64,000 nucleotides of DNA from Pyrinomonadaceae bacterium (GTDB lineage Bacteria; Acidobacteriota; Blastocatellia; Pyrinomonadales; Pyrinomonadaceae), in the NCBI GenBank assembly GCA_036386415.1, contig DASVVT010000088.1, positions 1-64,000 of the forward strand. The letters are read 5' to 3'. Both the position numbers and the translations under genes were made by a program. Below are positions 16,104 through 54,850 of this stretch, in pieces. The notes under the pieces were generated by a model. It did no database searches, had not been told where the DNA came from, and was given only the letters and a program-made list of their open reading frames with translations. Each line of letters starts with the position of its first letter. Positions within the stretch are counted from its first letter, which is position 1.

Positions 16104-16139
16104 CTTTCTTTTTCCTTTGACCTTTTACTTTTGCCTTCT

Positions 16140-19857: not shown

Positions 19858-19990
19858 AAGTAGACAGTAGACAGTAGCCAGTAGTCAGTAGAAAAGAACA
19901 TCCGTTGATGCTATTCAATCATAGACTTCAGCGACAGCGTTCAATGCGCGGAGCGCCTACTGACTACTGTCTACTGGCTACTGACTACTG
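19858..19990. repeat. AGTAGTC-heptamer hairpin element, copy B
   Basis: Arms AAGTAGACAGTAGACAGTAGCCAGTAGTCAGTAG and CTACTGACTACTGTCTACTGGCTACTGACTACTG. Loop AAAAGAACATCCGTTGATGCTATTC… is a degenerate version of the conserved module. Confidence 0.9.
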
Positions 19991-19994: not shown

Positions 19995-22900
19995 TCAAAA
20001 TCTCTTTCTGAAACGAATCTCGAAACTGAAATTATCGTTACGTGAGCTGAAGCCATTAACAGAGCCTTGCTCATATTGCGCGACGAACGACAGACGGTTT
20101 GAGACGCGATATTCGAGCGCCAGCACCTGATTCTGATCCGAAGTCAGGTTGGTCGAATAGGTGATCGACAGGTCTTTATTGATCTGCCGCCCGACCGTCA
20201 GGCGCGCCGTCGGGCTCGCCCCGCCGCGTCCCGCGATTAAAGGATCGATCTCGAAGCGGTTCAAGCCGAAAAGCTTGTCTGTGGCGCGCCGCACCGGAGC
20301 GTTAATCAGAGTATCTGTAAGCAGGCTGGTCGCCGTTCCCAGTCCGGTCTGCGCGAGCGTGGAAGTGCCCGTATCGCCCCCTTCCAGATTACCCGTCAGG
20401 ATGAGGGAGACGACATCTGTCTGCGGCAGCGCCGGATCGGAGCGGACGGTCGTCGTGAGCTGCGATAGTGGGCCGGTCAATCCGACGAGCACCTGATAGC
20501 CTTTGATCTCCGACTCCGCTTGAATATTGAGGATCGGATCAGCGTCGCGAGCAGGCGGGAGGTCTATGAAGCCGCGCGTCACTTCGTAAGCGTCGTTGCG
20601 GAAGTTGAGCGTGCCGCGCGTCAGGGAAATGCGTCCCGAAATAATGGGGTCTTCGACGGGGCCGACGGCGCGCACCGAAAGTGAGCCGACGATGTCCGCC
20701 AGATTGTTGCGCACGACGAGCGCATCGCGACCCTCGACCCGCACGTCCAACTGGGTTGTGGCGGCAAAGGCGGAATCGCCGCCCGTGCCTTCCGTCAACG
20801 AAGCTTCCCGGCGACGATTGATAATATCGGCCAGCTCTATGTCCTCTGTGTATTCGGCGCGACGCAGATTGACGACGCCGGTGATGAACTGTCCGCGCGT
20901 CGCGCCGTTGATCTCAAGGTCTGCGTCGGCAGTCGTTCTGAAGCCTTGAGGGTACGGGACGGTCACGTCGTCGCCGTGGACGCTGAAGCGATAGCTCGTA
21001 GGCGTAAATCCGGCGAGCAGCGCGCCGCCCGAAACCACGACGCGCCCGCCGCCGAGGTTGCCCGTCAAGGTGTCTATCTGCGCCTGATTGGAGTTGAAGC
21101 GAACGCGGCCATTGACGTTTGAGACGGTCAATCTCTCGTCGCCGATGAGGGTCGCAATGGACGCGCCCGCAACGTTGGCCGTACCGAAGAGACGCGGCTG
21201 CTCGTACGTGCCCGTCATACGCACGCTGGCTTCGGCAATTCCTGACAGGAAGATGTTGGGCGAGAGGCCGTTCAGAACTCTCAGGTTCAATTTGCCGTCG
21301 ATGGTCAGACTCTGGCGGCCACCGGGGCCGAGCGCCGCCGTGCCGCCGAAGAGAATGTTCGTGCCGGGGCCTGTGAACTGCGTCTTCTCAAAGAAGACCT
21401 CCTCGCTTGAGAACTGCACCTGAAGCGGCGAGACGGCCTGAAGCGGGATGTCTTCGACCTGTATGGTCAGGTCTGTGAAGTTGGCCGTGCCACGCAGTCC
21501 CGCGAGGCTGAACACGTCTTCATCTTTCTCGTTCGGCGTGATGAGATTTCCGCTCGCCTTGAGCGTGCCAGTCGCGTGGCCGATCACCTTGACGTTTGAT
21601 TGCGGCAGGAGCAGCGCGAAGAGCGGCGTCAGGTCTGCGCCCGCAAGCGTCGTCTCGATGTTCGTCGCCAGACGCTCGCTGCCGAGATCGACGCGCGCCG
21701 CGATGGTCTGCGGCTGTCCCAGCAAATCTGTCGTCAGGCGCAGATCGAACTGTTTATTCTCCGTGCGCCCCACAAGCGTGAGACGCCCCGTCGTGCGACC
21801 GTTCACGGTCACGTCTCTGCCTTCGCCGTCGATGTTGATCTGGTAGGTCGAGAAATCCGTAAAGACTCCAGTGGCGTGCGCCACGAGGTCGGCTGTGCCG
21901 GTCAGTTGCGGCAGCCCCGAAGTATTCTTGGCAAAGCTCTCCAGGCGGTCGAGTTTAATCCCCTCGCCCCGCGCCTGTATGTCGAACCCCTGGGTCGTCG
22001 TATTGTATGTCCCGCTCGCCGTGATCCGCCCGGCACTAAAGCGCGCGTCAACATTTTCAAGATTGATGGCCGAGCCGTTGAAGGTCGCGCGCGCGATGAT
22101 GCTTTCAAACGGTTCGCCCGCGATGCGCCCCGGACTGAAACTGAGTTCTGCATTGCCGCTCATCGCACCCGGCAGCCCTGTCACGTTAATGCGCCCCGAA
22201 AGGTCTGACTGCACGTCGCCCAAACGATCAAGCGCGCCTTGATTCGCTTCTCCACCCATACGAGGTCTGAGGGCGGCAACGGCAGCGAGCAGGTTTCCGG
22301 CGTTGGCACGATCAAGCGTCAAGTCGAGCGCGATGTTGTTATCGCCGACGCGTGGAGCAAGCAGGCTGAACTGCGCTCCGCCGCCGTCGCGCTCCGTGAG
22401 TCGGCCATCGCTCAAGCGGATTTCGTCTGGAGTCACGCTCAGGTTGGCTGCGACCGAGCCGAGGTCACGATCCTGAACAAGCAGGGAATCAAGCGCGGCG
22501 TGGCCGTCGATGGTCGGGTTCGTCAAGTCTCCACGGACATTTCCGTTGAAGGCGAAGTTTCCGCCGAGACGGATTCCGCTCTCGCGTAGCTGCTGATCGA
22601 GGTCGGGGAAGAGACCGGAAGCGAGCAGGACATTCTGTAGCTCTGTCGCGTCGCTCGATTTGACGTTGAGCTGAAGATCGGATTCGGAGCGGATGAAGGA
22701 GAAGCGTCCCGTGGCGCTCAGCTCTGAAGAGGCCGTGCGCAGGTTGGCGCGCTCGATGTTGAAGAGGCCGCGCGTCGCACTCAAGGTGACATCACCGTTG
22801 AGCGCTGTGCGCGAGTCGCTGGCCTCATTGCCCGCTACGTCGCCATTGAACTCCGCACGCACAGTTCCGCTCGCCGCCTTGATATTCGATCCCGGAAATG

Positions 22901-26337: not shown

Positions 26338-26442
26338 GTCGGTTAAATCAGTAAACTGCCGGGAGAGCTAAAAATGACAGAAGCTATGTTACCCGAAAGC
26401 CCATTTTTTTGCGACTGGTAATTCGAGGAAAGAAGAGAATAA

Positions 26443-26527
26443 ACCGCAAAGGACGCAAAGAATGAAGACGCTAAGGGCGCGAAGAAGAGTTTCCTTTGCG
26501 TCTTCAAGTTTGCGTCCTTTGCGTTTA
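26443..26527. repeat. CGCAAAG-type hairpin element, copy G1
   Basis: CGCAAAGGACGCAAAGAATGAAGACGC … GCGTCTTCAAGTTTGCGTCCTTTGCG. Confidence 0.8.
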
Positions 26528-26579
26528 GAGTTTTCCGTATCGACAAAGGAGACCCGACCTCGTCAGTAATGGGTGCTCC

Positions 26580-29057
26580 TCACTGTGGGTTATGCCACCT
26601 CGCTATCTGGACGGATGGTTTGCCCCCGGCCCTGGAAAAATCGCCGACGACAAATATGTCGTCTCCACGGATAGCCGCTCCCCCTGCCGTGCTACTAAGC
26701 CCGCTCCCCATCGCAGACCAACCGCTCCCATCCCAGACGGCGATGTTATTAGCAGCAGTGCCACCGGCCTCCATGAAATAGCCTGTGGCGATCAAGCTGT
26801 CATCGTCGAACTTGAGGCCAAGGACGTACGGCAACCCCTCCGACGTAGAGCCTGTCAGGCCGGAGCCGAGGCCGCTCCACTTGCTCCCGTTCCACTTCGC
26901 TATATTGTTGACGGTGCTGCCTCCGGCGAAGTCGAAAGAGCCTCCGACATATACGTCACGACCTTTGTGAGCAACTGCAAAGACGGGGCCATTGACCCCG
27001 TTATATCCGCCTTCGCCGCCGGGTATCGGAACGATAAAGGCCGACCACCTGTTGCCGTCCCATTTCGCGATGTTGTTAGCGCCGCTTCCGCCAGCCAGCG
27101 AAAAAGAGCCCCCGACATACAGATTGTTTCCACTGGCTTCGAGAGCAAACACGTAGCCCTGGTAGATACCGTTCAGCTCTCCCTTGCCGAGCGTAGACCA
27201 GCTCACTCCGTCCCACCTGGCGATACTGTTGGCGGGCACGTCCCCCGCTACGTCAAAGAATCCTCCGGCGTACAGATTACCCTTATCGTCCAGGGTGAGA
27301 GAGAAAACAATATCATCTACACTGTCGCCGATCCCGCTCCCCAGGGCAGACCAGTTCATCCCGTCCCACCTGGCGATCCTGTTGGCCGGAGTGTCCCCGG
27401 CGAATGAGAAATAGCCGCCGACGTAAAGATCGTCTCCCTTGATCGCAATCGCGTTTATAAAGCCGTTGACGCCGTCGTGTACCCCCGATCCTAAGGTTGA
27501 CCACCTCCTTCCGTTCCACCTGGCAATGCCGTTCGCCAGGATGCCCCCGATCCACATCTTATCTCCGGCCACGTAGATGTCGTCCCCGCTGATTGCGATG
27601 GCGCTGAGGTTGCCCTCATTAACTCCGTTGTGCGCCCCGGCATCCGCCATCGCCGCCCACGACTGTGCGGCGGCATCCCACTTCGCCACGTGAAATACGC
27701 GCTCATCTCCCGCCTGGTTGAACGCGCCGACCGCGTAGAGGCCGCTCTCATTTCCGGCGATTCCGAGGACGGAAGCGTTGTATCTGAAGCCCTCCTCGAA
27801 TCCACCTGTAAGCCCCTCGTCAAGGGGCAGCCACCTGCCGTCCCAACGCGCGATGCTATTGGCCCGGACTCCGCCCGCAGAGTTGAAGTCTCCCGCCGCG
27901 TAGAGACGGTGATTGATGACGGCCAGTCCTCTAACGCGGGCGCTTACCTCTCCGCCGTTCTGCAACAGCCCGTCTCCCAGGCCGCTCCACGCGCGCCCGT
28001 TCCAGCGTGCGATATGGTTAATATTGTTTCCGCCCGCGTGACGAAAGAAGCCGCTCGCATAAACGGTCGCCCCATCGACGGCGAGCGCGAGCACCCAGTC
28101 GTCCATCCCCGTCGCGAGCGGCGACCAGGTGGCGTCCGCGCGATTCCACATCGCCACGTAGTTGGCCGCAAGCGTCCCGGCCAACTCGAACTTGCCTCCA
28201 ACGTAGACCTGATTTCCCCTCACGGCGATGGCGGCGATAAAAGCAGGGTCTTCCGGGTCGGGCATGCTTACGCCGCCCCCCGCATCCGACCATGTTTGAC
28301 TCGCCGTATCCCAGCGTGCCAGGTTCGATACCGGCAGACCGCCCGCTTTCGAGAAGTGCCCCCCGGCGTAGAGTTCCTGCCCCGCTGTCGCCAGGGCGTA
28401 GACGAGGACGCCGAACGTGCCTTGCAGTCCGTTACTCTCTCCTGCACCGAGCGGATACCACAATCCGCCCCGCCACCTGGCGATGTTATGAGCACGAACT
28501 TTACCGGCCTGGGAGAAGCTGCCTCCGACGTAAACATCCTCGCCGGAAAAAGCGATGCTGTAGACTGTGCCGTTGACGCCGTTGTTCTCGTTGATCCCAA
28601 GCGAGCGCCAGCGCAGGCCGTCCCACCTCGCGATATTATTGACGCTCGCGTGACTGACGGTCATAAATCTGCCCCCGATAAAGACCTCTGAGCCACGGAC
28701 TGCGACCGTATAGACTTCCGGCTGATCCGTACCGGGCGAGCTCCAGCGTGGGTCCCAGTTGCGGTCTGAGGGGACGGTCTGGATGCCTGCTTCAGCTTCT
28801 ACAGTCAAAGGCTCGAACCTGGGTTGCCCGCTCGAATCCGTCCTCAGCCTCCAGCCTCTGGCATCGAACGATTCATGTAGGTTCTGCTTCAGCGTCCCAT
28901 CCGGGTTGAGCGCCTCCCGGATCAGTTTCCGCGTCGCAAGCGGCGTCGCATCTCTATCTTTGGGTGGCGGGATGCTTCTTTGAGCGTGAGCAGGCCAGAC
29001 CAGCAGTAAAAGCAGTGGTAAAATGGCAATCCTCAGAACAAACCTTGCAACCGGCAT
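26580..29057 (-). CDS. Secreted beta-propeller repeat protein (~14 tandem ~50-aa repeats of the delta-60/SBBP-like type)
   Basis: Signal peptide. Repeated pattern …(V/I)YVGG.F..AGG…ANNIA(R/K)W(D/N)G..WS.LG.G… seen ~14 times. Confidence 0.6.
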   Translation of the reverse strand: MPVARFVLRIAILPLLLLLVWPAHAQRSIPPPKDRDATPLATRKLIREALNPDGTLKQNLHESFDARGWRLRTDSSGQPRFEPLTVEAEAGIQTVPSDRNWDPRWSSPGTDQPEVYTVAVRGSEVFIGGRFMTVSHASVNNIARWDGLRWRSLGINENNGVNGTVYSIAFSGEDVYVGGSFSQAGKVRAHNIARWRGGLWYPLGAGESNGLQGTFGVLVYALATAGQELYAGGHFSKAGGLPVSNLARWDTASQTWSDAGGGVSMPDPEDPAFIAAIAVRGNQVYVGGKFELAGTLAANYVAMWNRADATWSPLATGMDDWVLALAVDGATVYASGFFRHAGGNNINHIARWNGRAWSGLGDGLLQNGGEVSARVRGLAVINHRLYAAGDFNSAGGVRANSIARWDGRWLPLDEGLTGGFEEGFRYNASVLGIAGNESGLYAVGAFNQAGDERVFHVAKWDAAAQSWAAMADAGAHNGVNEGNLSAIAISGDDIYVAGDKMWIGGILANGIARWNGRRWSTLGSGVHDGVNGFINAIAIKGDDLYVGGYFSFAGDTPANRIARWDGMNWSALGSGIGDSVDDIVFSLTLDDKGNLYAGGFFDVAGDVPANSIARWDGVSWSTLGKGELNGIYQGYVFALEASGNNLYVGGSFSLAGGSGANNIAKWDGNRWSAFIVPIPGGEGGYNGVNGPVFAVAHKGRDVYVGGSFDFAGGSTVNNIAKWNGSKWSGLGSGLTGSTSEGLPYVLGLKFDDDSLIATGYFMEAGGTAANNIAVWDGSGWSAMGSGLSSTAGGAAIRGDDIFVVGDFSRAGGKPSVQIARWHNPQ

Positions 29058-32359: not shown

Positions 32360-32440
32360 AGCGTCCTTTGCGCCAATCCTTTGCGTTCTTTGCGTTGAGA
32401 GGTTTTTCAACGCACAGAACGCAAAGGAGGAAGACGCTGG
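32360..32440. repeat. CGCAAAG-type hairpin element, copy G2 (degenerate)
   Basis: GCGTCCTTTGCG CCAATCCTTTGCG TTCTTTGCG … CGCACAGAACGCAAAGGAGGAAGACGC. Confidence 0.7.
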
Positions 32441-32661
32441 AGGTGCGCGAAGAATGATCTATTTAATGGACATCGCTTGCGCGCCGGATAACCATCTGAG
32501 CAAACAGGCGGGCAGGAATTCCGCCCAAACACCACGCAAATCGTCCGGGAATTATGGAAAACCGGCTTGCTCAGATCGTGCAGAGCGCGGTAAAGTAGCA
32601 GCCGATTAACAATCCCCGCGCACTCCCTCGGTTTTCAAAAGCTTGCTGGAGGTCACTTCTG

Positions 32662-35052
32662 ATGTCTGGTGGAATTGTCGAACTCGAAAAGCCGACCAAT
32701 GAGTATCCTGATATCGTCGGCGCGCATCCCGAAAATCCATTGGCCGCTTCATTTCGCCCGTACATTCCCGCACGCGTGAAATTACGCGAACTGACTCCGC
32801 TTCCCTTAATCGTCGGAACACTTCTCGGCATCGTGTTCGGAGCATCCTCGCTCTACCTTGTGCTCAAGGTCGGTTTGACCGTGAGCGCATCAATCCCTGT
32901 CGCAGTCATTTCGATCACGCTCTTTCGCGTCCTTTCAAAGTTCGGGTTGAGAGACGCGACGATCCTTGAGAACAACATCGTCCAGACGGCGGGCTCGGCT
33001 GGAGAATCCATAGCCTTCGGCCTCGGCGTGACGATGCCCGCCATCATGATCCTCGGCTTCGACCTTGACGTCACGCGCGTGATGCTCGTCGCCGTTCTGG
33101 GCGGCCTGCTCGGCATCCTGATGATGATTCCCTTGCGGCGCGCGCTCATCGTCGCACAGCACGGCATCCTGAAATACCCTGAAGGGACGGCCTGCGCCGA
33201 AGTGCTCAAAGCAGGGGCTTCGGATGAGTCAAGGCGGGCGGCGCACGAAGACCCTGCGTCCGCTGCCGTCGCAGACGAAGCGACCGTCGGCGGCAAGACG
33301 ATCATCGCGGGCTTCGGCATAGGCTTCATTTATTACGGGCTCCAACAGATTTTCAAGACGTGGAAGGAGATTCCGACCAAAGTTTTCGGGCGGCCATTCG
33401 AGGCCGGTTCTCTCTCGATTGAAAACAATCCGGCGCTGCTTGGCGTCGGCTACATCATCGGGCCGCGTATCGCCTCGATCATGGCGGCGGGCGGTGTCCT
33501 GTCTTACCTCGTGCTGATTCCGGCGATCAAGTTTTTCGGCTCCGGCCTGGCGGCTCCACTTGCGCCTGAGACCGCGCACCTCATCAAAGATATGTCGGTA
33601 GGGGATATTCAGAAGGCATACATTCTCTACATCGGCGCGGGCGCGGTCGCGGCGGGCGGCATCATCAGCCTCTTTCGCTCGCTGCCCGTCATCTGGCACG
33701 GGTTGAAGGGAGGGCTCGCTGACCTGCGTAGAACGAAGGCTGCGAGCGATAATGCGCCGCGCACAGACCGCGACCTTTCGATGAAGTTCGTGCTTGGCGG
33801 GATTGTCGCCCTGCTGGTGGCGATCATGATCTTCCCGCATCTTAATCTGCAATTCAATCTGCTTGGCGCGTTTCTCATTGTCGCCTTCGGCTTTCTCTTC
33901 GTCACCGTTTCGTCGCGCCTGACGGGCGAGGTCGGCTCCTCTTCGAACCCGATCTCGGGCATGACGGTGGCGACGCTGCTGCTGACCTGCCTGGCCTTCC
34001 TGATTATCGGCTGGACTGCGCCGCCCTACTTTGTGACGGCGCTGTCAATCGGCGGCATCGTCTGCATCGCCGCGTCGAACGGCGGCACGACCTCGCAGGA
34101 TTTGAAGACCGGCTTTCTGGTCGGCGCGACGCCGAGCGCTCAACAGATTGCCATCCTCGTGGGCGCGCTCTCTTCGGCGCTCGTGCTCGGCTATATACTC
34201 CTCTGGTTGAACCAGTCCTCGTCTGTCTACGTTCCGGTCGCCAACAACACACAGATCAGTCTCCCGGCGGATTTTCGATTTGACCCCGCCAAATGCGAAC
34301 AGAGCGGCGGGCAGCCCAAGCGTGAGCAGTTGCTGGGGCCGCAGGCATCGTCTGATACGGCGAGCTATCTGGTCTGTCACCAGACAGAGACCTCCGTAGG
34401 CCAGGTGGGTCGCTACCTTGTTAACGATCAGGGCGTGCCGGTTTACTTCTCAGACCCGGGCATCAACGGCATTATCACGGAGCGCCCCGGCGGCGGCAGC
34501 GTGACCAAGTACAACGCGCCGAAGGCGACGCTCATGTCCTACATCATCAAGGGTATTTTGAGCGGCGAACTTCCCTGGGGGCTCGTGCTCCTGGGCGTCT
34601 TCATCGCCATCGTGCTTGAGCTTTCGGGCATCCCGTCCTTAGCCTTCGCCGTCGGCGTCTACCTGCCCCTCTCAACCTCTGCGCCGATCTTCGTCGGCGG
34701 CATGGTGCGCTGGGGTGTGGACAAATACCTGCGGGGCAAACCTGAGAATAAGAAGCTGACCGAGGAGCAACTCATCGCCGAGGGCGACAAGAGTTCCGGC
34801 GTGCTGCTCGCATCCGGCTACATCGCGGGCGGAGCGCTCGCAGGCGTCGTCCACGCCTTCCTCAACCTGAGCGAAGGCGTCGCAACCCGCCTCACGGGCT
34901 TCGAGCATTGGTCAGCCGCCAACAACCCTTTCTTCGAGGGGCCAATGTCAGACCTCCTGGCTCTCATCCCGCTTATAGTACTGACGGTGCTGCTCTATCT
35001 GGTCGGACGCGAGATGATCTTCGGCGGGCGGGCTGGCCGCGCCGGAGGCTGA
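32662..35052 (+). CDS. OPT-family oligopeptide transporter
   Basis: ~16 TM segments with an OPT-superfamily pattern (…SESIAFGLGVTMPAIMILGF…; …GGTTSQDLKTGFLVGATP…). A ~100-aa hydrophilic insertion is present. Confidence 0.8.
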   Translation: MSGGIVELEKPTNEYPDIVGAHPENPLAASFRPYIPARVKLRELTPLPLIVGTLLGIVFGASSLYLVLKVGLTVSASIPVAVISITLFRVLSKFGLRDATILENNIVQTAGSAGESIAFGLGVTMPAIMILGFDLDVTRVMLVAVLGGLLGILMMIPLRRALIVAQHGILKYPEGTACAEVLKAGASDESRRAAHEDPASAAVADEATVGGKTIIAGFGIGFIYYGLQQIFKTWKEIPTKVFGRPFEAGSLSIENNPALLGVGYIIGPRIASIMAAGGVLSYLVLIPAIKFFGSGLAAPLAPETAHLIKDMSVGDIQKAYILYIGAGAVAAGGIISLFRSLPVIWHGLKGGLADLRRTKAASDNAPRTDRDLSMKFVLGGIVALLVAIMIFPHLNLQFNLLGAFLIVAFGFLFVTVSSRLTGEVGSSSNPISGMTVATLLLTCLAFLIIGWTAPPYFVTALSIGGIVCIAASNGGTTSQDLKTGFLVGATPSAQQIAILVGALSSALVLGYILLWLNQSSSVYVPVANNTQISLPADFRFDPAKCEQSGGQPKREQLLGPQASSDTASYLVCHQTETSVGQVGRYLVNDQGVPVYFSDPGINGIITERPGGGSVTKYNAPKATLMSYIIKGILSGELPWGLVLLGVFIAIVLELSGIPSLAFAVGVYLPLSTSAPIFVGGMVRWGVDKYLRGKPENKKLTEEQLIAEGDKSSGVLLASGYIAGGALAGVVHAFLNLSEGVATRLTGFEHWSAANNPFFEGPMSDLLALIPLIVLTVLLYLVGREMIFGGRAGRAGG

Positions 35053-35094: not shown

Positions 35095-35208
35095 GGATTG
35101 CGGAATGCGGATTTCGGATTGCGGATTTATGCTTCTTAATCTCGAATCTGAAATTTGAGATTCCAGATCACAAATCTTGTAATCCGCAATCCACAATCTA
35201 CAATCCCC
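35095..35208. repeat. ATTGCGG-heptamer hairpin element, copy 1
   Basis: Arms GGATTGCGGAATGCGGATTTCGGATTGCGGATTT and AATCCGCAATCCACAATCTACAATCCCC. The loop is the reverse complement (~80% identical) of the loop at 59677-59729. Confidence 0.85.
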
Positions 35209-35275
35209 ATTTGGCAGAGGCGCGCTCAGAATTACCTGACGGGCGCGCCTCGAATTTCGTATCCAAGGAAATCAG

Positions 35276-38075: not shown

Positions 38076-39893
38076 ATGAACCCTTCAAGATTGGCTGACA
38101 ACAAGAGTGGCGGAAAAAGTTTTCGGTACGCCATGATGCATGTCTTCGTGCTCCTCATCTCAATCGCATGTCTCGCCAGCCGCGCCAGCGCGCAATCGCC
38201 CGCCAACACCTCGCCGCAGCCGGGTAGCGGTCTTGACGCTACAGCTAATGCACAGACTGGCACGCAAGGGCGTTCGGTCTTGCGTGGGCGCGTCGTCTAC
38301 GAAGAGAGCGGGCGACCTTTGAGCGACACGTCTGTTGCAATCTTCAGGATGACTCAACCGCATCAGGGCTACGGCGCGATGACCGATGCGCGCGGCGAAT
38401 TTAAGGTGGAGAATCTGCCTGCGGGCAAGTATGCAGTCATGGCCGACGGCCCCGACATTATGGAAGCAGGATTCCTACTTCAGTCTTCGGAGAGCACTAC
38501 TGAAAGACCAATCGTTGAGCTTGACGGAACGAGCGCGGCTTCAGTGCAGGTTCGCGTCCGGCGCGGCGGCGCGATCACAGGTCAGGTCACACGCGCCGAC
38601 GGCAGCCCCGCCGTCGATGCCTTGATTATGCTCATGATTAAAAGGGACGGTCGCATGCTCCCGTTCAAGCGTCGCAACGTGCGTACAGATAAGCAGGGCT
38701 TTTATCGCTTCGGCGGTTTGCCGACCGGCGACTACATAGTTAGCGCAGACGAGTCGTATGAAGAAGTGCAGGCTGATGAAACGCCACGGGACACCAGCTA
38801 CGGAACACTGGTCGGCACTCTCTACCCCGGCACGACCAAAATCAGCGACGCCACGACCGTCCACGTTCAGGAAGGCGGAGAAACGAGCGGCATTAACATC
38901 ACACTCATCAAGCGTGCGACCCACAGAGTCTACGGCACGATCCGCACGCTGCGCGGCGGACTCCCGCGCGGGGAGGCCAGCATCTCCATCCGCGAGAAGG
39001 ATGAGACGCGCAACCTGTCTGCGCTCGAGCAGATAAAGCCGGTTGATGCCGAGGGCAGATGGTGGTTCGACGGTGTGCCTGACGGCACGTATATCTTAAA
39101 CGTCATCCCCAGTGGCAAGCGTCCAGCCGGTTCCGTAGATACGCTGGAGCACGCACAACTTCGCGAGGAGCTTGTCTACCCGTTCCTCTATAAACGTCAG
39201 GAAGTGACGGTGGCGGGTGCTGATCTCAAAGACCTTGTCATAGAGCTATCCGAGGGCGCGAGCGTTTCCGGGACTATCGAGACGGAAAACGGCCAGCCTC
39301 TCCCGCCGGATATAAGCATCGGTGCGCAAGCGGACTTTGCAGTTTCTGCTGCGGCTCGCGTCCGGCCCGACAGAACCTTCAAGCTTCAGGGCATACCGGC
39401 AGGAAACGTTTACCCCTACATCTATACCACTTCGTTCGGCGAGTCTTCGATGAAGGTGATGTTTGACGAGTATTACGTGAAGTCGATCTACGTGGGCGGC
39501 ATAGAACTACAGGGCGAGCCGCTCAAGGTTGAAGAGGGAGCGGAGATTAAAGGCGTGCGCATGGTGATCTCGCGCGAGGTGGCAACGGTGACGGGACATG
39601 TGCGCTCAGCAAAAGATGGCACACCCCAGCGCGGAATCAACGTCGTGCTGCTGCCCACAGACCCCGCACGCCAGCGAGCCGTCAAAGGGCTGCCCTTTGG
39701 ATTCACAAACGCGAAGGGAGCTTTTAGCGCCAGCGGCCCGCCCGGCGAATATTTTGTGGTGGCCTTTGGGGAGAGCGACCTGCCTGTCACCGATGAAAAG
39801 ATCAAAGCGCTCGCCGCCGTCGCCCCGCGCGTTCGGCTTCAACCGAATGAGCGCAAGACCGTAGACCTCACCAGGCAAGAAAGTAAGAAATGA
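38076..39893 (+). CDS. Secreted carboxypeptidase-regulatory-like-domain repeat protein (tandem paralog)
   Basis: Same module order as 36177..38021 (RGRVVYEESGRPL…, ITGQVTRADGSPAVDALIML…). The TGA stop lies inside the left arm of the hairpin at 39889. Confidence 0.65.
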   Translation: MNPSRLADNKSGGKSFRYAMMHVFVLLISIACLASRASAQSPANTSPQPGSGLDATANAQTGTQGRSVLRGRVVYEESGRPLSDTSVAIFRMTQPHQGYGAMTDARGEFKVENLPAGKYAVMADGPDIMEAGFLLQSSESTTERPIVELDGTSAASVQVRVRRGGAITGQVTRADGSPAVDALIMLMIKRDGRMLPFKRRNVRTDKQGFYRFGGLPTGDYIVSADESYEEVQADETPRDTSYGTLVGTLYPGTTKISDATTVHVQEGGETSGINITLIKRATHRVYGTIRTLRGGLPRGEASISIREKDETRNLSALEQIKPVDAEGRWWFDGVPDGTYILNVIPSGKRPAGSVDTLEHAQLREELVYPFLYKRQEVTVAGADLKDLVIELSEGASVSGTIETENGQPLPPDISIGAQADFAVSAAARVRPDRTFKLQGIPAGNVYPYIYTTSFGESSMKVMFDEYYVKSIYVGGIELQGEPLKVEEGAEIKGVRMVISREVATVTGHVRSAKDGTPQRGINVVLLPTDPARQRAVKGLPFGFTNAKGAFSASGPPGEYFVVAFGESDLPVTDEKIKALAAVAPRVRLQPNERKTVDLTRQESKK

Positions 39894-39985
39894 TGAATGC
39901 GGAATGCGGAATGATGAATTAAGAACAGAACCGAAAGGAACGGCTTCCTTCTTTTCATTCATCATTCCGCATTCCGCATTCATCA
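39889..39985. repeat. Perfect 31-bp hairpin built from AATGMKG heptamers (singleton)
   Basis: AATGATGAATGCGGAATGCGGAATGATGAAT -35 nt loop- ATTCATCATTCCGCATTCCGCATTCATCATT. Confidence 0.85.
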
Positions 39986-40162
39986 TTTGCTTTTTCGTTT
40001 GATCTGGCTACAATGATGTGGTCGCAAACGGCATGGGCCATACTCACCGTCTACGCCAATTATCAATCAAAGTTTCCCCCGGCCCTTTTGCCCTCCCGGA
40101 AATTTTCGCTCTCCCGCCTGTTTCCCCGTAAGCGTTTGGTTGTGGCTTGAGAAATCTGCGAG

Positions 40163-40612
40163 GTGTCTAGCGAAATGGCTGAACTGTTGCGCGCACTCGC
40201 CGCACGGCTGCACAGGTACATAGGTGATCGTCGTCGCGCCCCACGACACGGGGTGCGCCTGGCCGTCACTCTCTGGCTGCCTGACGGCCCGCTCAATTCA
40301 AACGGCGTGCGCCGACGCTCGCCCGTGCTTGAGGGCTTCACACGCGATGTGAGCGCAACCGGGCTGGCGCTCATCCTGCCCGCCATTCGCATCGGCGAAC
40401 ACTACCTGATCGGCGAAGGCCGCAACCTGCGCCTCCGGCTTGAACTTCCGACGGGGGCGATCCAGATGGATGTCACTCCCGTGCGCTACGAGCGTCTTGA
40501 AGAGGAGCAGGCGGAAAAGGGCTACCTCATCGGCGTCCTGATCGCGGAGATGAGCGACGAAGATCGCCAACGCTACAACGAAGGAATGAAAACAGTAGAC
40601 AGTAGCCAGTAG
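40163..40612 (+). CDS. PilZ-domain c-di-GMP-binding protein
   Basis: RRRAPRHGVRL (RxxxR) and DVSATGLAL (DxSxxG) PilZ motifs. The last 5 codons and the TAG stop lie in repeat C. Confidence 0.7.
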   Translation: MSSEMAELLRALAARLHRYIGDRRRAPRHGVRLAVTLWLPDGPLNSNGVRRRSPVLEGFTRDVSATGLALILPAIRIGEHYLIGEGRNLRLRLELPTGAIQMDVTPVRYERLEEEQAEKGYLIGVLIAEMSDEDRQRYNEGMKTVDSSQ

Positions 40613-40740
40613 TCAGTAGCCAGTAGAAAAGAAAATCGGTTGATGCGGTTGATACGGCTCATCTAACTTCATAGTAGGCAGCAAAGCTTGATGCCCTGCT
40701 TTCGTTTCTACTGGCTACTGACTACTGGCTACTGTCTACT
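40594..40740. repeat. AGTAGTC-heptamer hairpin element, copy C (perfect 33-bp stem)
   Basis: AGTAGACAGTAGCCAGTAGTCAGTAGCCAGTAG / exact reverse complement at 40707-40740. Loop AAAAGAAAATCGGTTGATGCGGTTGATACGGCTCATCT…. Confidence 0.95.
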
Positions 40741-41393: not shown

Positions 41394-41535
41394 AGTAGAC
41401 AGTAGTCGGTAGACAGCAGACAGTAGAAAAGAAAATCTGTTGACGCGGTTGATGCTGCTCATCTCAATCATCGTAGGCAACGTAGTAGATACTCTGTTTT
41501 ATCTACTGCCTACTGACTACTGACTACTGTCTACT
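41394..41535. repeat. AGTAGTC-heptamer hairpin element, copy D
   Basis: Arms AGTAGACAGTAGTCGGTAGACAGCAGACAGTAG / CTACTGCCTACTGACTACTGACTACTGTCTACT (imperfect). Loop AAAAGAAAATCTGTTGACGCGGTTGATGCTGCTCATCT…. Confidence 0.9.
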
Positions 41536-42086: not shown

Positions 42087-42145
42087 ATGAAAAGCAGGAG
42101 ACAGAATACAGAATACAGGAGACAGAATAAAACCGTAGGGGCCAT

Positions 42146-42241
42146 TTAAACGCAGAGGACGCAAAGGTATTTCGCAAAGGAGGCCAAAGAGTAAATCCTC
42201 TGCGTACTCTGCGTAGAACCTTTGCGCCCTCTGCGTTTAAA
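42146..42241. repeat. CGCAAAG-type hairpin element, copy G3
   Basis: TTTAAACGCAGAGGACGCAAAGGTATTTCGCAAAGG … CCTCTGCGTACTCTGCGTAGAACCTTTGCGCCCTCTGCGTTTAAA. The TAA stop of the MFS gene lies in the terminal TTTAAA. Confidence 0.85.
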
Positions 42242-43607
42242 TTGCGCTCGTCTGAGGCGTTTCCTCTGTTTCCTCTGCATCACGCGCGTCGTTCCACCAC
42301 CGCTCCGTGGTGAACCAGAGCGCGCCGGGCACTAGAAAAAGAAGGCCGATGCCGACGGTCACGGTACGCGGCGAGAACTGGAAGCGGTCGAGCAGCTCGC
42401 CCGTCACGTAATTCGAGGCGGCCATCGTCAGCGTGAACAGTGCCAGCTCGGCGGCAAAGACGCGCCCGCGAAAGTTGTCTTCGACCACGCGTTGCAGCAG
42501 CACCGTCGAGAAGACCCAGAGGATGCTGCCGCCCATGTGAGCGACGAGCAGCACCAGGAGTGCCACCATGAAGTTCGTCGCCCGACCGAAAGCGATGTAG
42601 AAGATACCGCCCATGATGAATGCGCCGCCGATAGCGCGTTGCATGTCCCAGCGCATTTCACCACTAAAGCGCCGGGCAGCGAGCGGCCCGATGGCCGTGC
42701 CGATTCCGCGCGCCGCGTAGAGCACGCCGATTCCGGTCGCGGTGCTGCCGCCGACGGGAAAAATCTTTTCGCCGAAGACGGCCAGCAGAGCGAGTATGCC
42801 GCCGCCCAATCCCCAGGCCGGTTTGACCAGCATCAGGGCGAGCACGCGCGGGCGCTTTAACACGTAGCGCATACCATCCAACGTATCCGTGATCCCGAGC
42901 GCATGCTTGATGGTCAGCCTACGCTTAACGCGCGGCTCTCGTCCGGGGAAGCGCACCCTGGCGATGAGGGCTGCCGAAGCGAGATAGGTCAGCGAATCGA
43001 GCACGAAGGCTGCGTCCGTGCCGAACCAACCCGTGACCACGCCGCCAATTGCTGCGCCCAGCGTGAGCATGACAGACCAGGTGACAGACGAGATGGCGTT
43101 TGCCGCGACCAGCTCGCGCGGCGCGACGAGAGACGGAATGGCAGCCGTTTTCGCCGGTTCGAAGAAGGTCGAAAAGACCAGTTGCAGAACCGTCAGCGCG
43201 TAGACGAGCCACATCTGGTCAGGACGGCGCACCAGCAGAAACCCGAGCACGACTATGGCGCGCAAGAGGTCTGACACGATCATGATCGAGCGACGGCTGA
43301 AGCGATCCGCAACGACGCCAGAGAGCGGTCCCAAAATGAAGCTCGGCACAAAGCGCGCCACAAGGACGAGGCCGACGGCGCGACCCGACCCCGTCAGGTT
43401 CAGGACAATCGTGTAGAGGGCGATGGTGTCGAACCAGTCACCCATCTGGCTGACGACCTGGCCTAGCCAGAGCTGCCGGAAATTGCGGTTCGTGCGAAGC
43501 AGCTCGAGATAGCCGACCGCTCGCCTTTCACCTGCGCTCAACGTCTCACCTTCCGCTTTCAATATTGAAAGAGGGTGCACCCTTGAGAAAACGGTTGTCA
43601 ACCGCAC
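42237..43607 (-). CDS. MFS transporter
   Basis: 12-TM pattern with MFS signature loops (…GPLSGVVADRFSRR…). Confidence 0.8.
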   Translation of the reverse strand: MRLTTVFSRVHPLSILKAEGETLSAGERRAVGYLELLRTNRNFRQLWLGQVVSQMGDWFDTIALYTIVLNLTGSGRAVGLVLVARFVPSFILGPLSGVVADRFSRRSIMIVSDLLRAIVVLGFLLVRRPDQMWLVYALTVLQLVFSTFFEPAKTAAIPSLVAPRELVAANAISSVTWSVMLTLGAAIGGVVTGWFGTDAAFVLDSLTYLASAALIARVRFPGREPRVKRRLTIKHALGITDTLDGMRYVLKRPRVLALMLVKPAWGLGGGILALLAVFGEKIFPVGGSTATGIGVLYAARGIGTAIGPLAARRFSGEMRWDMQRAIGGAFIMGGIFYIAFGRATNFMVALLVLLVAHMGGSILWVFSTVLLQRVVEDNFRGRVFAAELALFTLTMAASNYVTGELLDRFQFSPRTVTVGIGLLFLVPGALWFTTERWWNDARDAEETEETPQTSAI

Positions 43608-43612
43608 GGAGA

Positions 43613-43715
43613 TTTAAACGCAAAGGACGCAAAGGCTCTTCGCAAAGGGCGCAGAGAAAGAAGAACCTCTTTGCGCGCCTCCAGCGTCTTCCTCCTTCGC
43701 GTCCTTTGCGTTTAA
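43613..43715. repeat. CGCAAAG-type hairpin element, copy G4
   Basis: TTTAAACGCAAAGGACGCAAAGGCTCTTCGCAAAGGGCGCAGAG … CCTCTTTGCGCGCC…TTCGCGTCCTTTGCGTTTAAA. Confidence 0.85.
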
Positions 43716-44287
43716 ATCCTTCCTCACCAGAACGGTTTCAAAAGGTTTCAGTCACAGCGTTGACCGAAATTATCAATCTGACCTATCAGATTGACGAACA
43801 ACTTCGTCCTGCGGCCTCACGTCGGAGAGCGATCTGCTTGCGATAAGCGCAGTGCCTTGCAGCATTTAGCTCATCCCGGTCGTCTCTCGCAAACTCGCGG
43901 CACATGGTTTGTTAAGTATCAGTGCGCGGCTCGAAGCGCCCTTAAAAAAGCGCTTCCCGAACTCTCCGCACGGAGTTCGGCTGAGGGCCGCGCCAAATTT
44001 GAAAAGCTGTAGCGTCCCCGTAACTTTTCCGGCGCTCTCATGGCCGGATCAATGACGCTCAAATGGACCCACTCACCCCCAGACAGGCGGGAACATGCGT
44101 TACCACAGCCCGCCGCTTGCCCCGTCCTATGCCGGAAGCGAGAGCTGAGTTGCTCCCAGCAATCGCTTCCGGCGATGGACTTTTTTGACAAATACCACGC
44201 GATCAGGCGTCCCGTGTGGCCGCGAGTGTGAATGGTTAAGCATAGAGAGAACGCACAGAGGGCGAAGTTCATCATCCGGACTGGAGA

Positions 44288-49074: not shown

Positions 49075-50496
49075 TTGAGCGACATGCAAGCGACACGACT
49101 CCTCGTTGCCGAAGACGAAGCCAATCTGCGCCTCGTGATTCAAAAGGAATTGCAGCGCCTGGGATTTCGTGTGGATGTTGTGCCGGACGGCGAGGCCGCC
49201 TTGCGCCGCCTCGAAGAGGGCAATGTCGATGTCCTCTTAAGCGACATCAACATGCCGCGCATTGACGGGATGGAGCTGCTCAAACGCGTGAGAGAGCGTC
49301 CCAACCCGCCCGAAGTGATCTTGCTCACAGGCCACGCCACGGTCGAGACCGCTATTGAAGCGATGAAGCTCGGCGCGTATGACTATCTGACCAAGCCGTA
49401 TCACATCACGGAGCTGGACGCGCTCGTCAAACAGGCTGCGGAAAAGCGTCGGCTGCGCGTTGACAACCAGCGCCTGCGTCAGCAACTGGCTCGCCAGTCG
49501 GAGATGCCGGAGATCGTCTCCGTCTCCGACCTCATGCGCGAGGCGCTACGCCTTGTCGAGCGCGTCGCGCCTTCGGACGCCTCCGTCTTAATCACGGGCG
49601 AATCCGGAACCGGCAAGGAGCTGATCGCGCACGCCATTCACAGACTCTCGACTCGCGCCGATGCATCCTTCATTGATCTCAACTGCGCCGCGTTTCAGGA
49701 GTCGCTTCTCGAATCAGAGCTTTTCGGTTACGAGGCGGGCGCATTCTCCGGCGCGAAGGGTCGCAAGCTCGGACTGATAGAACTGGCCGACGGCGGCACG
49801 CTCTTTCTGGACGAAGTGACGGAGCTGCCCACGCAGCTTCAATCGAAGCTGCTGCGCGCCATTGAGACGCGCACCTTCTACCGTGTCGGCGGCGTGCGCA
49901 AAGTCGAAGTCGATGTCCGCATCGTCGCGGCCACGAATCGCAATCTCGATCAGGTGGTCACGGATGGAACGTTCCGCTCCGACCTGCTCTATCGCATCAA
50001 CGGATTCCAGATAGACCTCTCGCCCCTGCGCGAAAGACCCGAAGACATAGAACCCCTGGCGCGCCATCTGCTCAAGCAGCTTTGTGGCGCGAATACTCCC
50101 GACCTGACACCCGAAGCGCTCGAAGCCCTGCGCGCCTATAGCTGGCCTGGCAACGTGCGCCAGTTGCGCAACTGCCTTGAGCGCGCCGTGCTGCTGGCAA
50201 ACGACTCGCTCATCACCCTTAACGAGCTACCGCCGGAGGTCGCGCGCCAGGCGGGCGCACCGCTGCCGATCATGACCGCTATGTCGGGCAGCACGGCGGA
50301 AGCGGGCAGCACCAGCGCACAAAGTTCTTCCGGCTCCGCTTCGCCCGCATCGCTGCGCGAAGTCGAGCGCCAGCAGATTCTCGCCGCGCTCGAACAAACG
50401 GGCTGGCATCGCGGCAAGACAGCCGAAATCCTCGGCATCTCGCCCTCCACGCTCTATCGCCGCCTGCGTGACTATAATCTTGAGCGTCGTAATTAA
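49075..50496 (+). CDS. Sigma-54-dependent response regulator (NtrC family: REC, AAA+ sigma-54 activator, Fis-type HTH)
   Basis: Walker A GESGTGKE, GAFSGA motif, ESELFGYEAGAF, C-terminal HTH (…KTAEILGISPSTLYRRL). Confidence 0.9.
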   Translation: MSDMQATRLLVAEDEANLRLVIQKELQRLGFRVDVVPDGEAALRRLEEGNVDVLLSDINMPRIDGMELLKRVRERPNPPEVILLTGHATVETAIEAMKLGAYDYLTKPYHITELDALVKQAAEKRRLRVDNQRLRQQLARQSEMPEIVSVSDLMREALRLVERVAPSDASVLITGESGTGKELIAHAIHRLSTRADASFIDLNCAAFQESLLESELFGYEAGAFSGAKGRKLGLIELADGGTLFLDEVTELPTQLQSKLLRAIETRTFYRVGGVRKVEVDVRIVAATNRNLDQVVTDGTFRSDLLYRINGFQIDLSPLRERPEDIEPLARHLLKQLCGANTPDLTPEALEALRAYSWPGNVRQLRNCLERAVLLANDSLITLNELPPEVARQAGAPLPIMTAMSGSTAEAGSTSAQSSSGSASPASLREVERQQILAALEQTGWHRGKTAEILGISPSTLYRRLRDYNLERRN

Positions 50497-50580
50497 ACGC
50501 AAAGTACGCAAAGGAAAGGCGCGCAAAGGTCGCAAAGAATCAACCCCTTTGCGATAACCTTTGCGTCCTTTGCGTTTAAA
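50493..50580. repeat. CGCAAAG-type hairpin element, copy G5
   Basis: TTAAACGCAAAGTACGCAAAGGAAAGGCGCGCAAAGGTCGCAAAG … CCCCTTTGCGATAACCTTTGCGTCCTTTGCGTTTAAA. The TAA stop of the regulator lies in the terminal TTAAAC. Confidence 0.85.
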
Positions 50581-50649
50581 TCTTCCCTTAAAAAAGCATA
50601 ACTTGACAACCATACCACGCAGGTTTGAATATACTCCGAATCGAATCAT

Positions 50650-53563: not shown

Positions 53564-54673
53564 GTGACATTTCTTTCTCTCCAAAACATCTCGAAGCGAT
53601 ACGACGCGACCGTGGCCGTCGCCGATCTTTCGCTCGCCATCGAGCGGGGCGAGTTCTTCGGGCTGCTCGGCCCGTCCGGGTGCGGCAAGACGACTACGCT
53701 GCGTATGATCGCAGGCCTGGAGACGCCGGACAGAGGGGTCATACAGTTCGATGGTCGGGACATCACGCGGCTCTCGCCCGAGCGGCGCGGCTTCGGCATG
53801 GTCTTTCAAAACTACGCGCTCTTCCCTCACCTAGACGTCTTTGAGAACGTCGCCTTCGGCCTGCGCGCGCGCCGTCGCCCGAAGGCGGAGATCACGGAGC
53901 GCGTCAAGAGCGCCCTCCAACTGGTGCAGCTTCCAGGCTACGAGCGGCGTCGCACGGGCGAGCTTTCGGGCGGCCAGCAACAGAGAGTCGCCATCGCGCG
54001 CGCCATCAGTATTGAGCCTGCGCTCCTGCTCTTTGACGAGCCACTCTCGAACCTGGACGTAGCCCTGCGCGAAGAGACGCGCGGCGAATTGCGCGAGCTG
54101 GTGGCACGCCTGAACCTGACCGCCGTTTACGTCACGCACGACCAGGAGGAAGCCTTCGCGCTCTGCGACCGCATCTGCGTGATGAGCGAAGGCCGCAGCC
54201 TGCAAACAGGAACGCCGCGCGAGCTTTACGAACGTCCCGCAGAGGCGCTGGTCGCACGCTTTCTCGGACGCAACAATCTCATCAAAGCCATGCGCCTGAG
54301 CGCCAGCCACGTCCGCAGCGCAACCTTCAAGACCCTCGAAGGCGGCCACACGCTCAACGTCTTCGTCCGGAAGGAGGATTTAAGCCCTCTCAACTCCGCC
54401 GCGACGCTCGCCATACGCCCGGAGTATCTACGTCTCAGTAAGACAGAAATAGTGGAAGATAACACTCTCCAAGCGACCGTTCGTGAGATCAACTTCACGG
54501 GCGCAACGACAAGCATCAAGCTGGACGCGGGCGGTCTCGCCCTCGAAGCCCTCGTCATTCAGGCGGACGGCCTCTCCGTCGGCGACGCCTGCATGGTCAT
54601 GCTGCCCCCTCAACACATCACGATCTTAGGGATGAACAAAGGGATGAGGGATGAACGAAGGGATGAGGGATGA
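53564..54673 (+). CDS. ABC transporter ATP-binding protein (FbpC/PotA family with C-terminal TOBE domain)
   Basis: Walker A GPSGCGKTT, Q-loop, signature LSGGQQQRVAIARA, Walker B LLLFDEPLS, H-loop. Confidence 0.9.
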   Translation: MTFLSLQNISKRYDATVAVADLSLAIERGEFFGLLGPSGCGKTTTLRMIAGLETPDRGVIQFDGRDITRLSPERRGFGMVFQNYALFPHLDVFENVAFGLRARRRPKAEITERVKSALQLVQLPGYERRRTGELSGGQQQRVAIARAISIEPALLLFDEPLSNLDVALREETRGELRELVARLNLTAVYVTHDQEEAFALCDRICVMSEGRSLQTGTPRELYERPAEALVARFLGRNNLIKAMRLSASHVRSATFKTLEGGHTLNVFVRKEDLSPLNSAATLAIRPEYLRLSKTEIVEDNTLQATVREINFTGATTSIKLDAGGLALEALVIQADGLSVGDACMVMLPPQHITILGMNKGMRDERRDEG

Positions 54674-54850
54674 GGGATGAGGGATGAAGAAAAGAAAGCA
54701 GCAGGCGGCAAGCAGAGCGCAGTAAGCGGAAAGCGTGAGAGCGTAAGCAACAAAAATCCAACCTCTGCTGGCTTTAGCTTTTTGTCTTCATTCATCCCTC
54801 ATCCCTCATCCCTCATCCCTTCGCAAGTCCCTCATCCCTCATCCCTCATC
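54629..54850. repeat. Hairpin built from AGGGATG heptamers (>=8 units per arm) at the junction of the two ABC transporter genes
   Basis: AGGGATGAACAAAGGGATGAGGGATGAACGAAGGGATGAGGGATGAGGGATGAGGGATGAAG -98-nt loop- CTTCATTCATCCCTCATCCCTCATCCCTTCGCAAGTCCCTCATCCCTCATCCCTCATCCTTTCG. Confidence 0.9.

Follow-up and report, generated by a model that had tools for sequence, protein, structure and literature searches.

A dispersed gene-end hairpin repeat with heptamer-array arms and a loop of either orientation in a Pyrinomonadaceae genome

We describe a family of hairpin repeats from the genome of a member of the Pyrinomonadaceae. Judged from the letters of the DNA, it is a dispersed, non-coding, nested palindromic repeat of about 100-120 bp. 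It appears to be a REP/MITE-like repeat that occupies gene-end slots and is built in an undescribed way, namely from heptamer arrays around a conserved core. New here are a loop that has been flipped in place, a derived insertion at the end of a PIG-L gene, and a core that recurs in the non-coding DNA of other phyla. It is plausible to assume, with moderate confidence, that the element works as a co-transcribed intercistronic stem-loop.

Results

Architecture of copies A and B

The window, i.e. the whole stretch of 64,000 nucleotides that was analysed, contains the copies A (35095-35208) and B (59647-59764). Each is a hairpin of about 115 nt, which consists of heptamer arms and a loop of 53-54 nt; the parts are listed in Table 1. 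The general layout of every copy comprises a pair of inverted arms, each made up of 2.5-5 tandem GGATTGC-like heptamers, and between them a loop of 53-55 nt with a conserved, near-palindromic core of 22 nt. The preliminary description of this DNA had claimed arms of four to five heptamer units at both sites, and TRF indeed detected arrays of period 7 with 3.7-4.7 copies. The complementarity of the arms, that is, of the terminal inverted repeats, is 22/28 positions in copy A and ranges up to 27/31 across the copies. The left arms of A and B are identical in 28 of 29 positions. With at most 3 mismatches allowed, the arm pattern GGATTGCGGATTGCGGATT gave 10 matches, all of them within copies A and B, compared to 0.01 in shuffles.

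Table 1. Positions of the element copies, their parts and other hairpins. Coordinates refer to the window unless preceded by the handle of another locus (L).
Feature	Position	Strand	Remarks
Copy A, left arm	35095-35127	none	GGATTGC GGAATGC GGATTTC GGATTGC GGATT; TRF period 7, 4.7 copies
Copy A, loop, 53 nt, orientation R	35128-35180	-	Reverse complement matches copy B loop
Copy A, 22-nt core CTCAAATTTCAGATTCGAGATT	35138-35159	-	Exact core-pattern match; small inner hairpin AATCTC/GAGATT in predicted fold
Copy A, right arm, partly decayed	35181-35208	none	AATCC GCAATCC ACAATCT ACAATCC; TRF 3.7 copies (35181-35206)
Copy B, left arm	59647-59676	none	ATGC GGAATGC TGATTTC GGATTGC GGATT; TRF 4.3 copies (59648-59677)
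Copy B, loop, 54 nt, orientation F	59677-59730	+	Identities to loops of L005, L004 and copy C in text
Copy B, 22-nt core CTCAGACTTCAGATTCGAGATT	59698-59719	+	Core-pattern match
Copy B, right arm	59731-59764	none	AATCC GCATTCC GCATTCC GAAATCC GCATTCC G; TRF 4.6 copies (59733-59764)
PIG-L ORF tail via copy B	59644-59781	+	45 codons and stop; stop TGA overlaps LysE ATG (ATGA)
Copy C, source genome	L031:3628-3748		About 5.4 kb past window end; same sequence in independent ENA assembly L032
Isolated core fragment GAATCTCGAAACTGAAATT	20014-20034	+	17/18 (94%) to copy A; 15-mer with 1 mismatch
GC-rich hairpin GAGGCGCGC...GCGCGCCTC, then GAATTT	35217-35251		Just upstream of 276-residue gene; kept in L024, L025 and L026, all without copy A
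AGTAGTC/AGTAGAC hairpins	6330-6478, 19859-19990, 40592-40740, 41394-41535, 56509-56637, 63213-63345		Six copies
Hairpins with 9-nt periodic arms ATTTAAACGCAAAGGACGCAAAG ... CTTTGCGTCCTTTGCGTTTAAAT	26435-26530, 32376-32453, 42141-42242, 43609-43717, 50488-50581, 61472-61571; L033:5520-5815
AGGGATG/TCATCCC heptamer-arm hairpins	54628-54851; L005:7518-7679; L004:7664-7748, 20922-21008; L005:17504-17588
Gene-end hairpins	15301-15382, 16001-16137		Arms of CAGATGT heptamers in one; arms with a period of 13/14 nt (AAAGGCAAAGCAA / CTTTTACCTTTGAC) in the other, which immediately follows Omp85/BamA-like gene

Positions 35138-35210 and 59647-59719 form an inverted repeat of 73 nt with 84% complementarity. 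The loops of A and B match in 42/54 positions (78%) as reverse complements, compared to 33/55 in direct alignment, which bears out the earlier estimate of about 80%. None of 2000 shuffles reached the alignment score of 29; the shuffle null was -3.2 +/- 3.5. On the plus strand, the predicted folds have -46.7 kcal/mol (z = -6.0) for A and -55.1 kcal/mol (z = -5.9) for B. Those on the minus strand are about equal (z = -7.3 and -7.5, respectively), and the z-scores span -5.9 to -7.5 across A, B and a copy from a related species (L005, see below). As anticipated in the preliminary description, the loop contains nested small palindromes (AATCTC...GAGATT and AGAT...ATCT), and the secondary structure prediction yielded long hairpins with an inner AATCTC/GAGATT stem inside the loop.

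Searches for known signals were negative within their scope. Rfam gave no match at the gathering score in the window, and a permissive search gave only noise (E >= 1.8). An intrinsic (Rho-independent) terminator consists of a GC-rich stem that is directly followed by a U-tract. No U-tract terminator follows any of the copies; the tails of A and B are CCCCATTTGG and TTTGGGGTTTTGA. Neither of the two loops contains a sigma-70-like promoter site, and a single weak match (9/12) lies in the decayed right arm of A. Genes for a transposase, RAYT or recombinase were found neither in about 84 kb of the source contig nor among the called genes of neighbouring loci, and a GTAG foot is absent from both arms. 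The literature search found no paper with the arm or core strings, and for heptamer hairpins in Acidobacteria or Planctomycetes it found only general work on heptamer repeats.

Further copies in the source genome and in related species

The source contig was read via JGI metagenome 3300034009, where it is Ga0334944_000014 (240 kb) with an offset of 37 nt; the start of the window is the end of the contig. Homologues of the PIG-L and the 276-residue proteins of the window are labelled Pyrinomonadaceae (Acidobacteriota, Blastocatellia), and one identical protein comes from an NCBI MAG, where it has the locus tag VF708_20595. With copy C, which lies beyond the window (Table 1), the source genome has three copies in the about 84 kb read, two of them intergenic and one in an ORF tail. 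The element occupies at least three unrelated loci within 35 kb of this genome. An assembly artefact was ruled out because identical copies are present in independent JGI and ENA assemblies.

Two PIG-L orthologues, one with 91% identity (P0001, L004) and one with 73% (P0002, L005-L008), likewise have copy B at their junction with LysE. L004 also has copy C, which is orthologous to that of the source and exactly fills the intergenic gap between an ABC-ATPase and an acetyltransferase gene. Copy B has evidently been at the same site since before three species diverged, and the same holds for copy C and two species. The source loop of B matches that of L005 in 44/54 positions (direct), that of L004 in 42/54 (only as reverse complement) and that of copy C in 47/54; taken together, the loops of B and C and the related-species copies at the same sites are 78-87% identical. 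According to the preliminary description, a lack of further copies or of conserved loops would speak against the family. Copy C and the orthologues in L004 and L005 exist, and the six loops, if oriented alike, are 65-87% identical in pairwise comparison (35/54 to 47/54); this test therefore does not refute the family. The six loops have an invariant frame, CTCA R A Y TTCA R ATTCG W GATT, in common, and 18 positions of the core are invariant in 6/6 copies. The earlier proposal of a second family with a heptamer stem and a conserved loop, comparable to the AGTAGTC hairpins, is thus upheld by a third copy in the same genome and by orthologous copies with conserved loops.

A covariance model built from five copies found no further full copies in 237 kb scanned, and the copy number may be modest. 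The covariance analysis that had been proposed was run on these five copies, which are too few sequences for it, and gave a consensus fold with no positive covariation. The scan of a metagenome collection, which evidently does not include the source contig, for both loop blocks (GTGATCTN{9,13}TTCAGATTCGAGATT) yielded only two chance matches, which are located within coding sequence.

Gene-end context and the PIG-L tail

Copies A, B and C each lie between genes of the same strand, 0-43 nt past the conserved end or the stop of the upstream gene. In agreement with the preliminary description, copy A follows an OPT-family transporter gene (32662-35052); it begins 43 nt downstream of the stop at 35052 and ends 68 nt before the next gene. 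Relatives at 70-77% identity lack copy A in this slot. Two of them have unrelated hairpins there, one with GGTMAAT heptamers, and a third has no hairpin that would be obvious in the unfolded sequence. The OPT gene may have its actual terminator in the GC-rich hairpin next to the 276-residue gene (Table 1), unless this hairpin is a leader structure.

Copy B lies within the last 45 codons of the PIG-L ORF (57118-59781), which reads through it as a tail of 45 residues; its fusion to the 3' end of this gene had been recognized correctly. In the PIG-L frame, the left arm translates as MRNADFGLRI. An element-coded tail of this kind (MRNADFG...) occurs in 3/121 PIG-L proteins (the query and 120 homologues), namely in the query, P0001 and P0002, and the remaining homologues end no more than a few residues from the conserved ...SYG. 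Compared to the ancestral end of the gene, copy B is evidently a derived insertion. No direct repeat that would mark a target-site duplication was found in the flanks of A, B and C themselves; the closest element-free relative (L033) has lost synteny and offers no clean empty site for comparison.

All frames of the arms are free of stop codons, and read-through of an ORF is therefore expected by default. Copies A and C are intergenic and have stop codons in most frames. Selection for an open frame through copy B was considered and set aside as not decisive, given that the arms are stop-free in all frames and that another frame is open in L005. Two further PIG-L homologues, P0009 and P0024, have annotated N-termini (MKSGIQNQESRIQKS... 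and MKNSNQWSVVSGQRSIVRS...) that resemble translated heptamer-repeat hairpins; in this family, gene callers probably often extend ORFs into such elements.

Inversion of the loop in place

The core is on the sense strand of the flanking genes (orientation F) in B and C of the source genome, in C of L004 and in B of L005. It has the opposite orientation (R) in A of the source genome and in B of L004. The B copies of the source and L004 are orthologous and their flanks are 94% identical. Their loops match in 42/54 ungapped positions as reverse complements, compared to 27/56 directly (0/2000 shuffles), and the reverse-complement match includes the locus-specific AGACTTCAG variant. The left arm in L004 retains the left-arm unit order GGAATGC-GGATTTC-GGGTTGC-GGATT, and the right arm retains two identical inner units, like that of the source. 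The loop has thus evidently been inverted in place between close relatives, whose PIG-L proteins are 91% identical. As the loop is flipped and both arms keep their own unit order, the breakpoints lie in the innermost arm units.

A sequence of the form X...rc(X) reads alike on both strands, and orientation is therefore defined by the loop alone. It follows from these strand-symmetric arms and from in-place flips that the opposite orientation of A and B is no evidence for insertion in two directions. The earlier claim of two copies in opposite orientation consequently stands for the loop and falls for the whole element, which as an inverted repeat is the same on both strands and whose loop flipped in place at PIG-L. 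In at least some cases, a loop thus acquires the opposite orientation without leaving its site. A comparison of arm polarity with transcription was likewise abandoned as meaningless, because X...rc(X) is identical on both strands. Only one orientation per species is found in the independent assemblies, four for L005 and two for the source.

Small inversions of hairpin loops are familiar from plastid spacers, and template switching at quasipalindromes is familiar from E. coli. The pattern of the flip is what template switching, or the recombination of two short inverted repeats with each other, produces. In both those systems and here, short loops flip between close relatives without a dedicated recombinase. 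In contrast to their single-copy spacer hairpins, however, the element belongs to a dispersed repeat family.

Arm dynamics and sequence constraint

Orthologous copies differ by whole heptamers; for example, copy C has 4.5 arm units in the source genome and 2.5-3.5 in L004. The arms evidently gain and lose whole heptamers. The paralogues B and C of the source are identical in 47/54 positions, compared to 42/54 and 43/55 for the orthologues, and they have an identical run of 36 nt with an odd GCTGATT unit, which is compensated in the right arm of C. The slightly closer relationship of the paralogues and their common 36-nt run therefore suggest, on few positions, gene conversion or recent copying between the two.

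The loops of B in the source and in L005 are 81% identical, compared to 68% at the third codon positions of LysE. For L004, the inversion-corrected loop is 78% identical, compared to 86% at the third codon positions of the flanking genes. Furthermore, the L004 copy of B forms a weak hairpin (z = -1.8). Because the L004 loop falls below the third-position value and its hairpin is weak, sequence constraint appears weak there; overall, it seems to be modest to weak. The mismatches in the arms comprise 2 sense G.U, 4 antisense and 14 transversions, that is, no excess of G.U on the sense strand. Selection at the RNA level is therefore not demonstrated, and a role at the DNA level or no role at all fits equally well.

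The 22-nt core outside the clade

A degenerate 22-mer of the core was compared with 185,579 species genomes, for which about 1 chance match is expected. The scan gave 15 matches, each in a different genome. Two of the 15 lie inside ORFs and look like chance. The other 13 are non-coding and were found in MAGs labelled Acidobacteria, Blastocatellia, Pyrinomonadaceae, Phycisphaerales, Planctomycetaceae, Verrucomicrobia and Heliomicrobium. The last label applies to two matches, and the flanks of one of them are homologous to an Acidobacteria MAG. In a viral collection, the core had 0 matches, and Rfam gave nothing at the core loci in other phyla.

Elsewhere, the core is usually longer and forms a palindrome with a stem of 13 bp, AATCTCAAATTTC...GAGATTTGAGATT. 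It is solitary at most outside loci; in L017 it lies within GATTTGC-heptamer arms and in L022 within a hairpin of -85 kcal/mol with unrelated arms. For the orthologous pair L009/L021, the solitary core is part of an identity run of 46 nt, compared to about 85% identity in the flanks. The window itself contains an isolated core fragment (Table 1), which lacks GGATTGC arms and is separated by 24 nt from a hairpin with AGTAGAC arms. Four IMG/VR contigs of 48-70% G+C have GGATTGC arms around unrelated loops. As the core is found alone or in other arms, and the arms are found with other loops, arms and core are separable modules.

The genes beside the core at ten loci, among them ThrRS, anthranilate synthase, ComEC, GT41 and radical SAM, have no relationship to each other. 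The core is therefore not the operator of one regulon, and its interpretation as an operator or riboswitch was rejected on these grounds. At several loci of other genomes, a start codon follows the core at a distance of 12-45 nt. About nine AATCTGA heptamers form a perfect tandem array in a Planctomycetaceae MAG (L020:17-80), 2.4 kb from a solitary core palindrome on the same contig; this heptamer is related to units of the core. We consider it unlikely, though worth stating, that the AT-rich near-palindrome of 22-32 nt (AATCTCARATTTCARATTCGAGATT, often with TGAGATT) is an autonomous module common to Acidobacteriota, Planctomycetota and Verrucomicrobiota. It would then be a putative binding or processing site of a conserved protein or nuclease, wrapped in lineage-specific heptamer arms that present it on a long gene-end stem and flip it.

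Other hairpins and repeats of the window

A scan of the 64 kb detected 20 hairpins with arms of at least 20 nt, most of which abut or overlap a stop codon. The families are AGTAGTC (six copies), a nonamer family starting TTAAACGCAAAGG, AGGGATG, CAGATGT, and GAATGCG arms with another loop. In the AGTAGTC family, a loop module (AGAAAATCGGTTGA...) lies beside the left arm in three copies and beside the right arm in two; this family therefore also shows both loop orientations. Its copy at 56509 has a different loop, and in L005 the loop of the orthologous copy (9314-9458) differs again. The first bases of the nonamer family, TTAAAC, often provide the TAA stop of the upstream gene (e.g. 50494-50496, and in L033), and two copies lie between divergent genes. 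The AGGGATG hairpins have near-perfect arms, loops of 27-104 nt and an orthologous site that is kept in three species. The hairpin at 39889-39987 has GAATGCG/GAATGAT heptamer arms, which correspond to the GGAATGC unit of the family studied here, and an unrelated loop of 37 nt; arms and loops therefore combine independently.

Three further features were observed. An island of low G+C content (10000-14300; 45-50% compared to about 60%) contains 7.5 tandem copies of the 13-mer TATATACAACTTG (11274-11371) upstream of a gene for an N6-adenine methylase/Eco57I-like restriction-modification protein of 897 residues (11603-14296), and it looks horizontally acquired. Positions 4335-4386 and 62552-62603 form an inverted match of 52 nt with 85% identity, CGGTGGTGAATCAACTCCTAAAGTCATTCACCACCGCAGACACCGCAGGGCG, and are probably another dispersed hairpin family with CACCGCAGA 9-mers. 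Finally, an internal repeat with a period of 153-159 nt (26700-28640) lies in a minus-strand gene of 825 residues (26580-29057) with faint DUF5122/Rax2 matches; it is a coding repeat protein and unrelated to the hairpins.

Discussion

Comparison with known repeats

REP sequences protect upstream mRNA and modulate termination. REPs and REPINs are defined by an imperfect palindrome of 20-40 nt with a conserved GTAG-like tetranucleotide at the 5' end that is recognized by a RAYT (a Y1 transposase); they are extragenic, have many copies, and usually flank the RAYT gene. Like REP/BIME and REPIN sequences, the element is short, non-coding and dispersed, lies after genes or between cistrons, can form a hairpin as DNA or RNA, and has copies that are alike within the genome. 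REP/BIME and REPIN sequences (for REPINs, see PMC3116915) are known from Enterobacteria and Pseudomonas. In contrast to REPs and REPINs, the element has a length of about 115 nt, arms that are tandem heptamer arrays instead of an imperfect palindrome of 20-35 nt, and a long conserved loop with its own small palindrome; a 5' GTAG-type tetranucleotide is missing, and no RAYT was seen within the about 84 kb read.

Correia elements are MITEs of Neisseria with 100-150 bp and long terminal inverted repeats, which are co-transcribed with their neighbours and form RNA hairpins. The element resembles these and other MITEs in size, long terminal inverted repeats, hairpin, and internal regions in alternative arrangements. 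It differs from them in that neither a target-site duplication nor a parent insertion sequence was detected, and in that its terminal repeats resemble microsatellites and vary in steps of whole heptamers.

Heptamer repeats are known from Xanthomonas (GGGAATC), as cyanobacterial STRR and from Nostoc (GGGGATT) (PMC4692102), and TAACTGA heptamers occur in Beggiatoaceae, Cyanobacteria and Bacteroidetes (PMC4679880). What these heptameric repeats have in common with the element are intergenic arrays of 2-6 units near start or stop codons, a unit number that varies among relatives, the occurrence of the same heptamer in distant phyla without a known route of transfer, and occasional inverted pairs that form stem-loops. 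However, they are mostly unpartnered direct arrays, whereas the element has obligate pairs around a conserved 54-nt loop and is copied between loci as a whole unit. Three or more tandem, non-coding 7-nt units in varying number, as in STRR-like repeats, were found here, both in the TRF arrays and in the comparison of copy C between the source and L004. Elhai et al. reportedly described in 2008 small dispersed repeats of Nostoc that are nested in heptamer repeats, among them a hairpin module of 21-27 nt that is solitary or nested. Similarly, the 22-nt core is solitary or lies inside hairpins with various arms; sequences and phylum are different, and nesting by insertion is not demonstrated here.

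Proposed role and alternative explanations

We propose that the element would be transcribed with the upstream gene and form a long stem-loop with imperfect pairing. As an RNA hairpin at gene ends or between cistrons, it might protect against 3' exonucleases, cause partial termination, or, in copy B with its ATGA overlap, force translation to be coupled. Copying to new gene ends would be due to a hairpin-recognising activity, gene conversion would partly homogenise the copies, and flips would arise by template switching or arm-arm recombination as a by-product and not as a switch. The main rival to this stem-loop, which we regard as possible but doubtful, is purely selfish or neutral miniature mobile DNA. 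It would be non-autonomous and have no cell function, it would sit at gene ends since insertions elsewhere are lethal, and its loops and arms would drift, slip and flip. The weak constraint is consistent with this explanation, given a corrected loop identity to L004 below that of third codon positions; so are the decaying hairpin of L004, the decaying right arm of copy A and the lack of a G.U bias in the arm mismatches. Different, unrelated hairpins in the post-OPT slot of relatives and a copy B that, as a derived insertion, merely extends an ORF point in the same direction. However, the core is invariant at 18 positions in six copies and recurs in other phyla, and for L009/L021 it lies in a run of identity that the flanks do not have. 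Copies B and C were kept through speciation, and neither a mobilising enzyme nor a target-site duplication was seen, which also argues against selfish DNA.

An inverton is characterized by a segment that occurs in both orientations between inverted repeats, an internal promoter, an invertase gene and mixed orientations in one population. If the arms were the inverted repeats of such a switch, site-specific or driven by recombination, a flip of the loop would change which way the core, as a promoter or operator, points with respect to the gene downstream. The in-place inversion at the PIG-L/LysE junction would agree with this, with both orientations found between species only, as would a core close to start codons at several loci in other genomes and a size and layout similar to those of small invertons. 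We nevertheless consider an inverton very unlikely: the loops contain no sigma-70-like promoter (the sole match being that in the decayed arm of A), no invertase or recombinase is encoded nearby, each of the six assemblies has a single orientation, and the genes beside the core in other phyla are unrelated. Moreover, the core is nearly palindromic, and flipping therefore changes little. Still less probable is an independent local origin of each copy, in which slippage of heptamer microsatellites and hairpin-templated repair would act in place without copying between loci. Such microsatellites are over-represented in bacteria and sometimes form inverted pairs (PMC4692102, PMC4679880), the arm unit number differs between orthologous copies, and GGATTGC arms with unrelated loops exist at 39889-39987 and in viral-collection contigs. 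Yet a non-repetitive loop of 54 nt with 76-87% identity and the same order of arm variants is common to three unlinked loci, which slippage alone cannot bring about, and copy B is absent from 118/121 homologues. Local slippage survives only as a mechanism of arm growth. We give equally little credence to a gene product, be it a gene for a small structured RNA or a peptide module that is translated as an addition to proteins, as in the palindromic elements of Rickettsia. Strong predicted folds would fit, as would the in-frame tail of 45 residues that three species have, even the one whose loop is flipped; however, A and C lie between genes and have stops in most frames, read-through of the stop-free arms is the default, and the sequence of the tail is not conserved after the flip. 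Nor were an Rfam match, a promoter or terminator, or positive covariation found.

Implications

If the core module is real, it would establish a class of modular, self-inverting gene-end elements that is absent from current catalogues of repeats and RNAs. Since the core recurs in Planctomycetota and Verrucomicrobiota, one may ask whether there is a common recognition factor or whether it spread horizontally. On the practical side, the hairpins mislead gene callers, as ORFs run into or through them (e.g. the false-looking PIG-L tail of 45 residues), and hairpin repeats that flip might, in principle, make the assembly of metagenomes more difficult.

Dry soils and biocrusts are rich in Pyrinomonadaceae; to our knowledge, almost nothing is known about their transcript ends or genome punctuation. 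About half of the gene junctions in the window have a long hairpin of tandem heptamers or nonamers. As the family described here shows, hairpins of this kind are copied from locus to locus, outlast speciation, vary by whole units and have loops that flip. Should they act as 3' stem-loops, a phylum with few canonical terminators would have its main gene-end signal in them.
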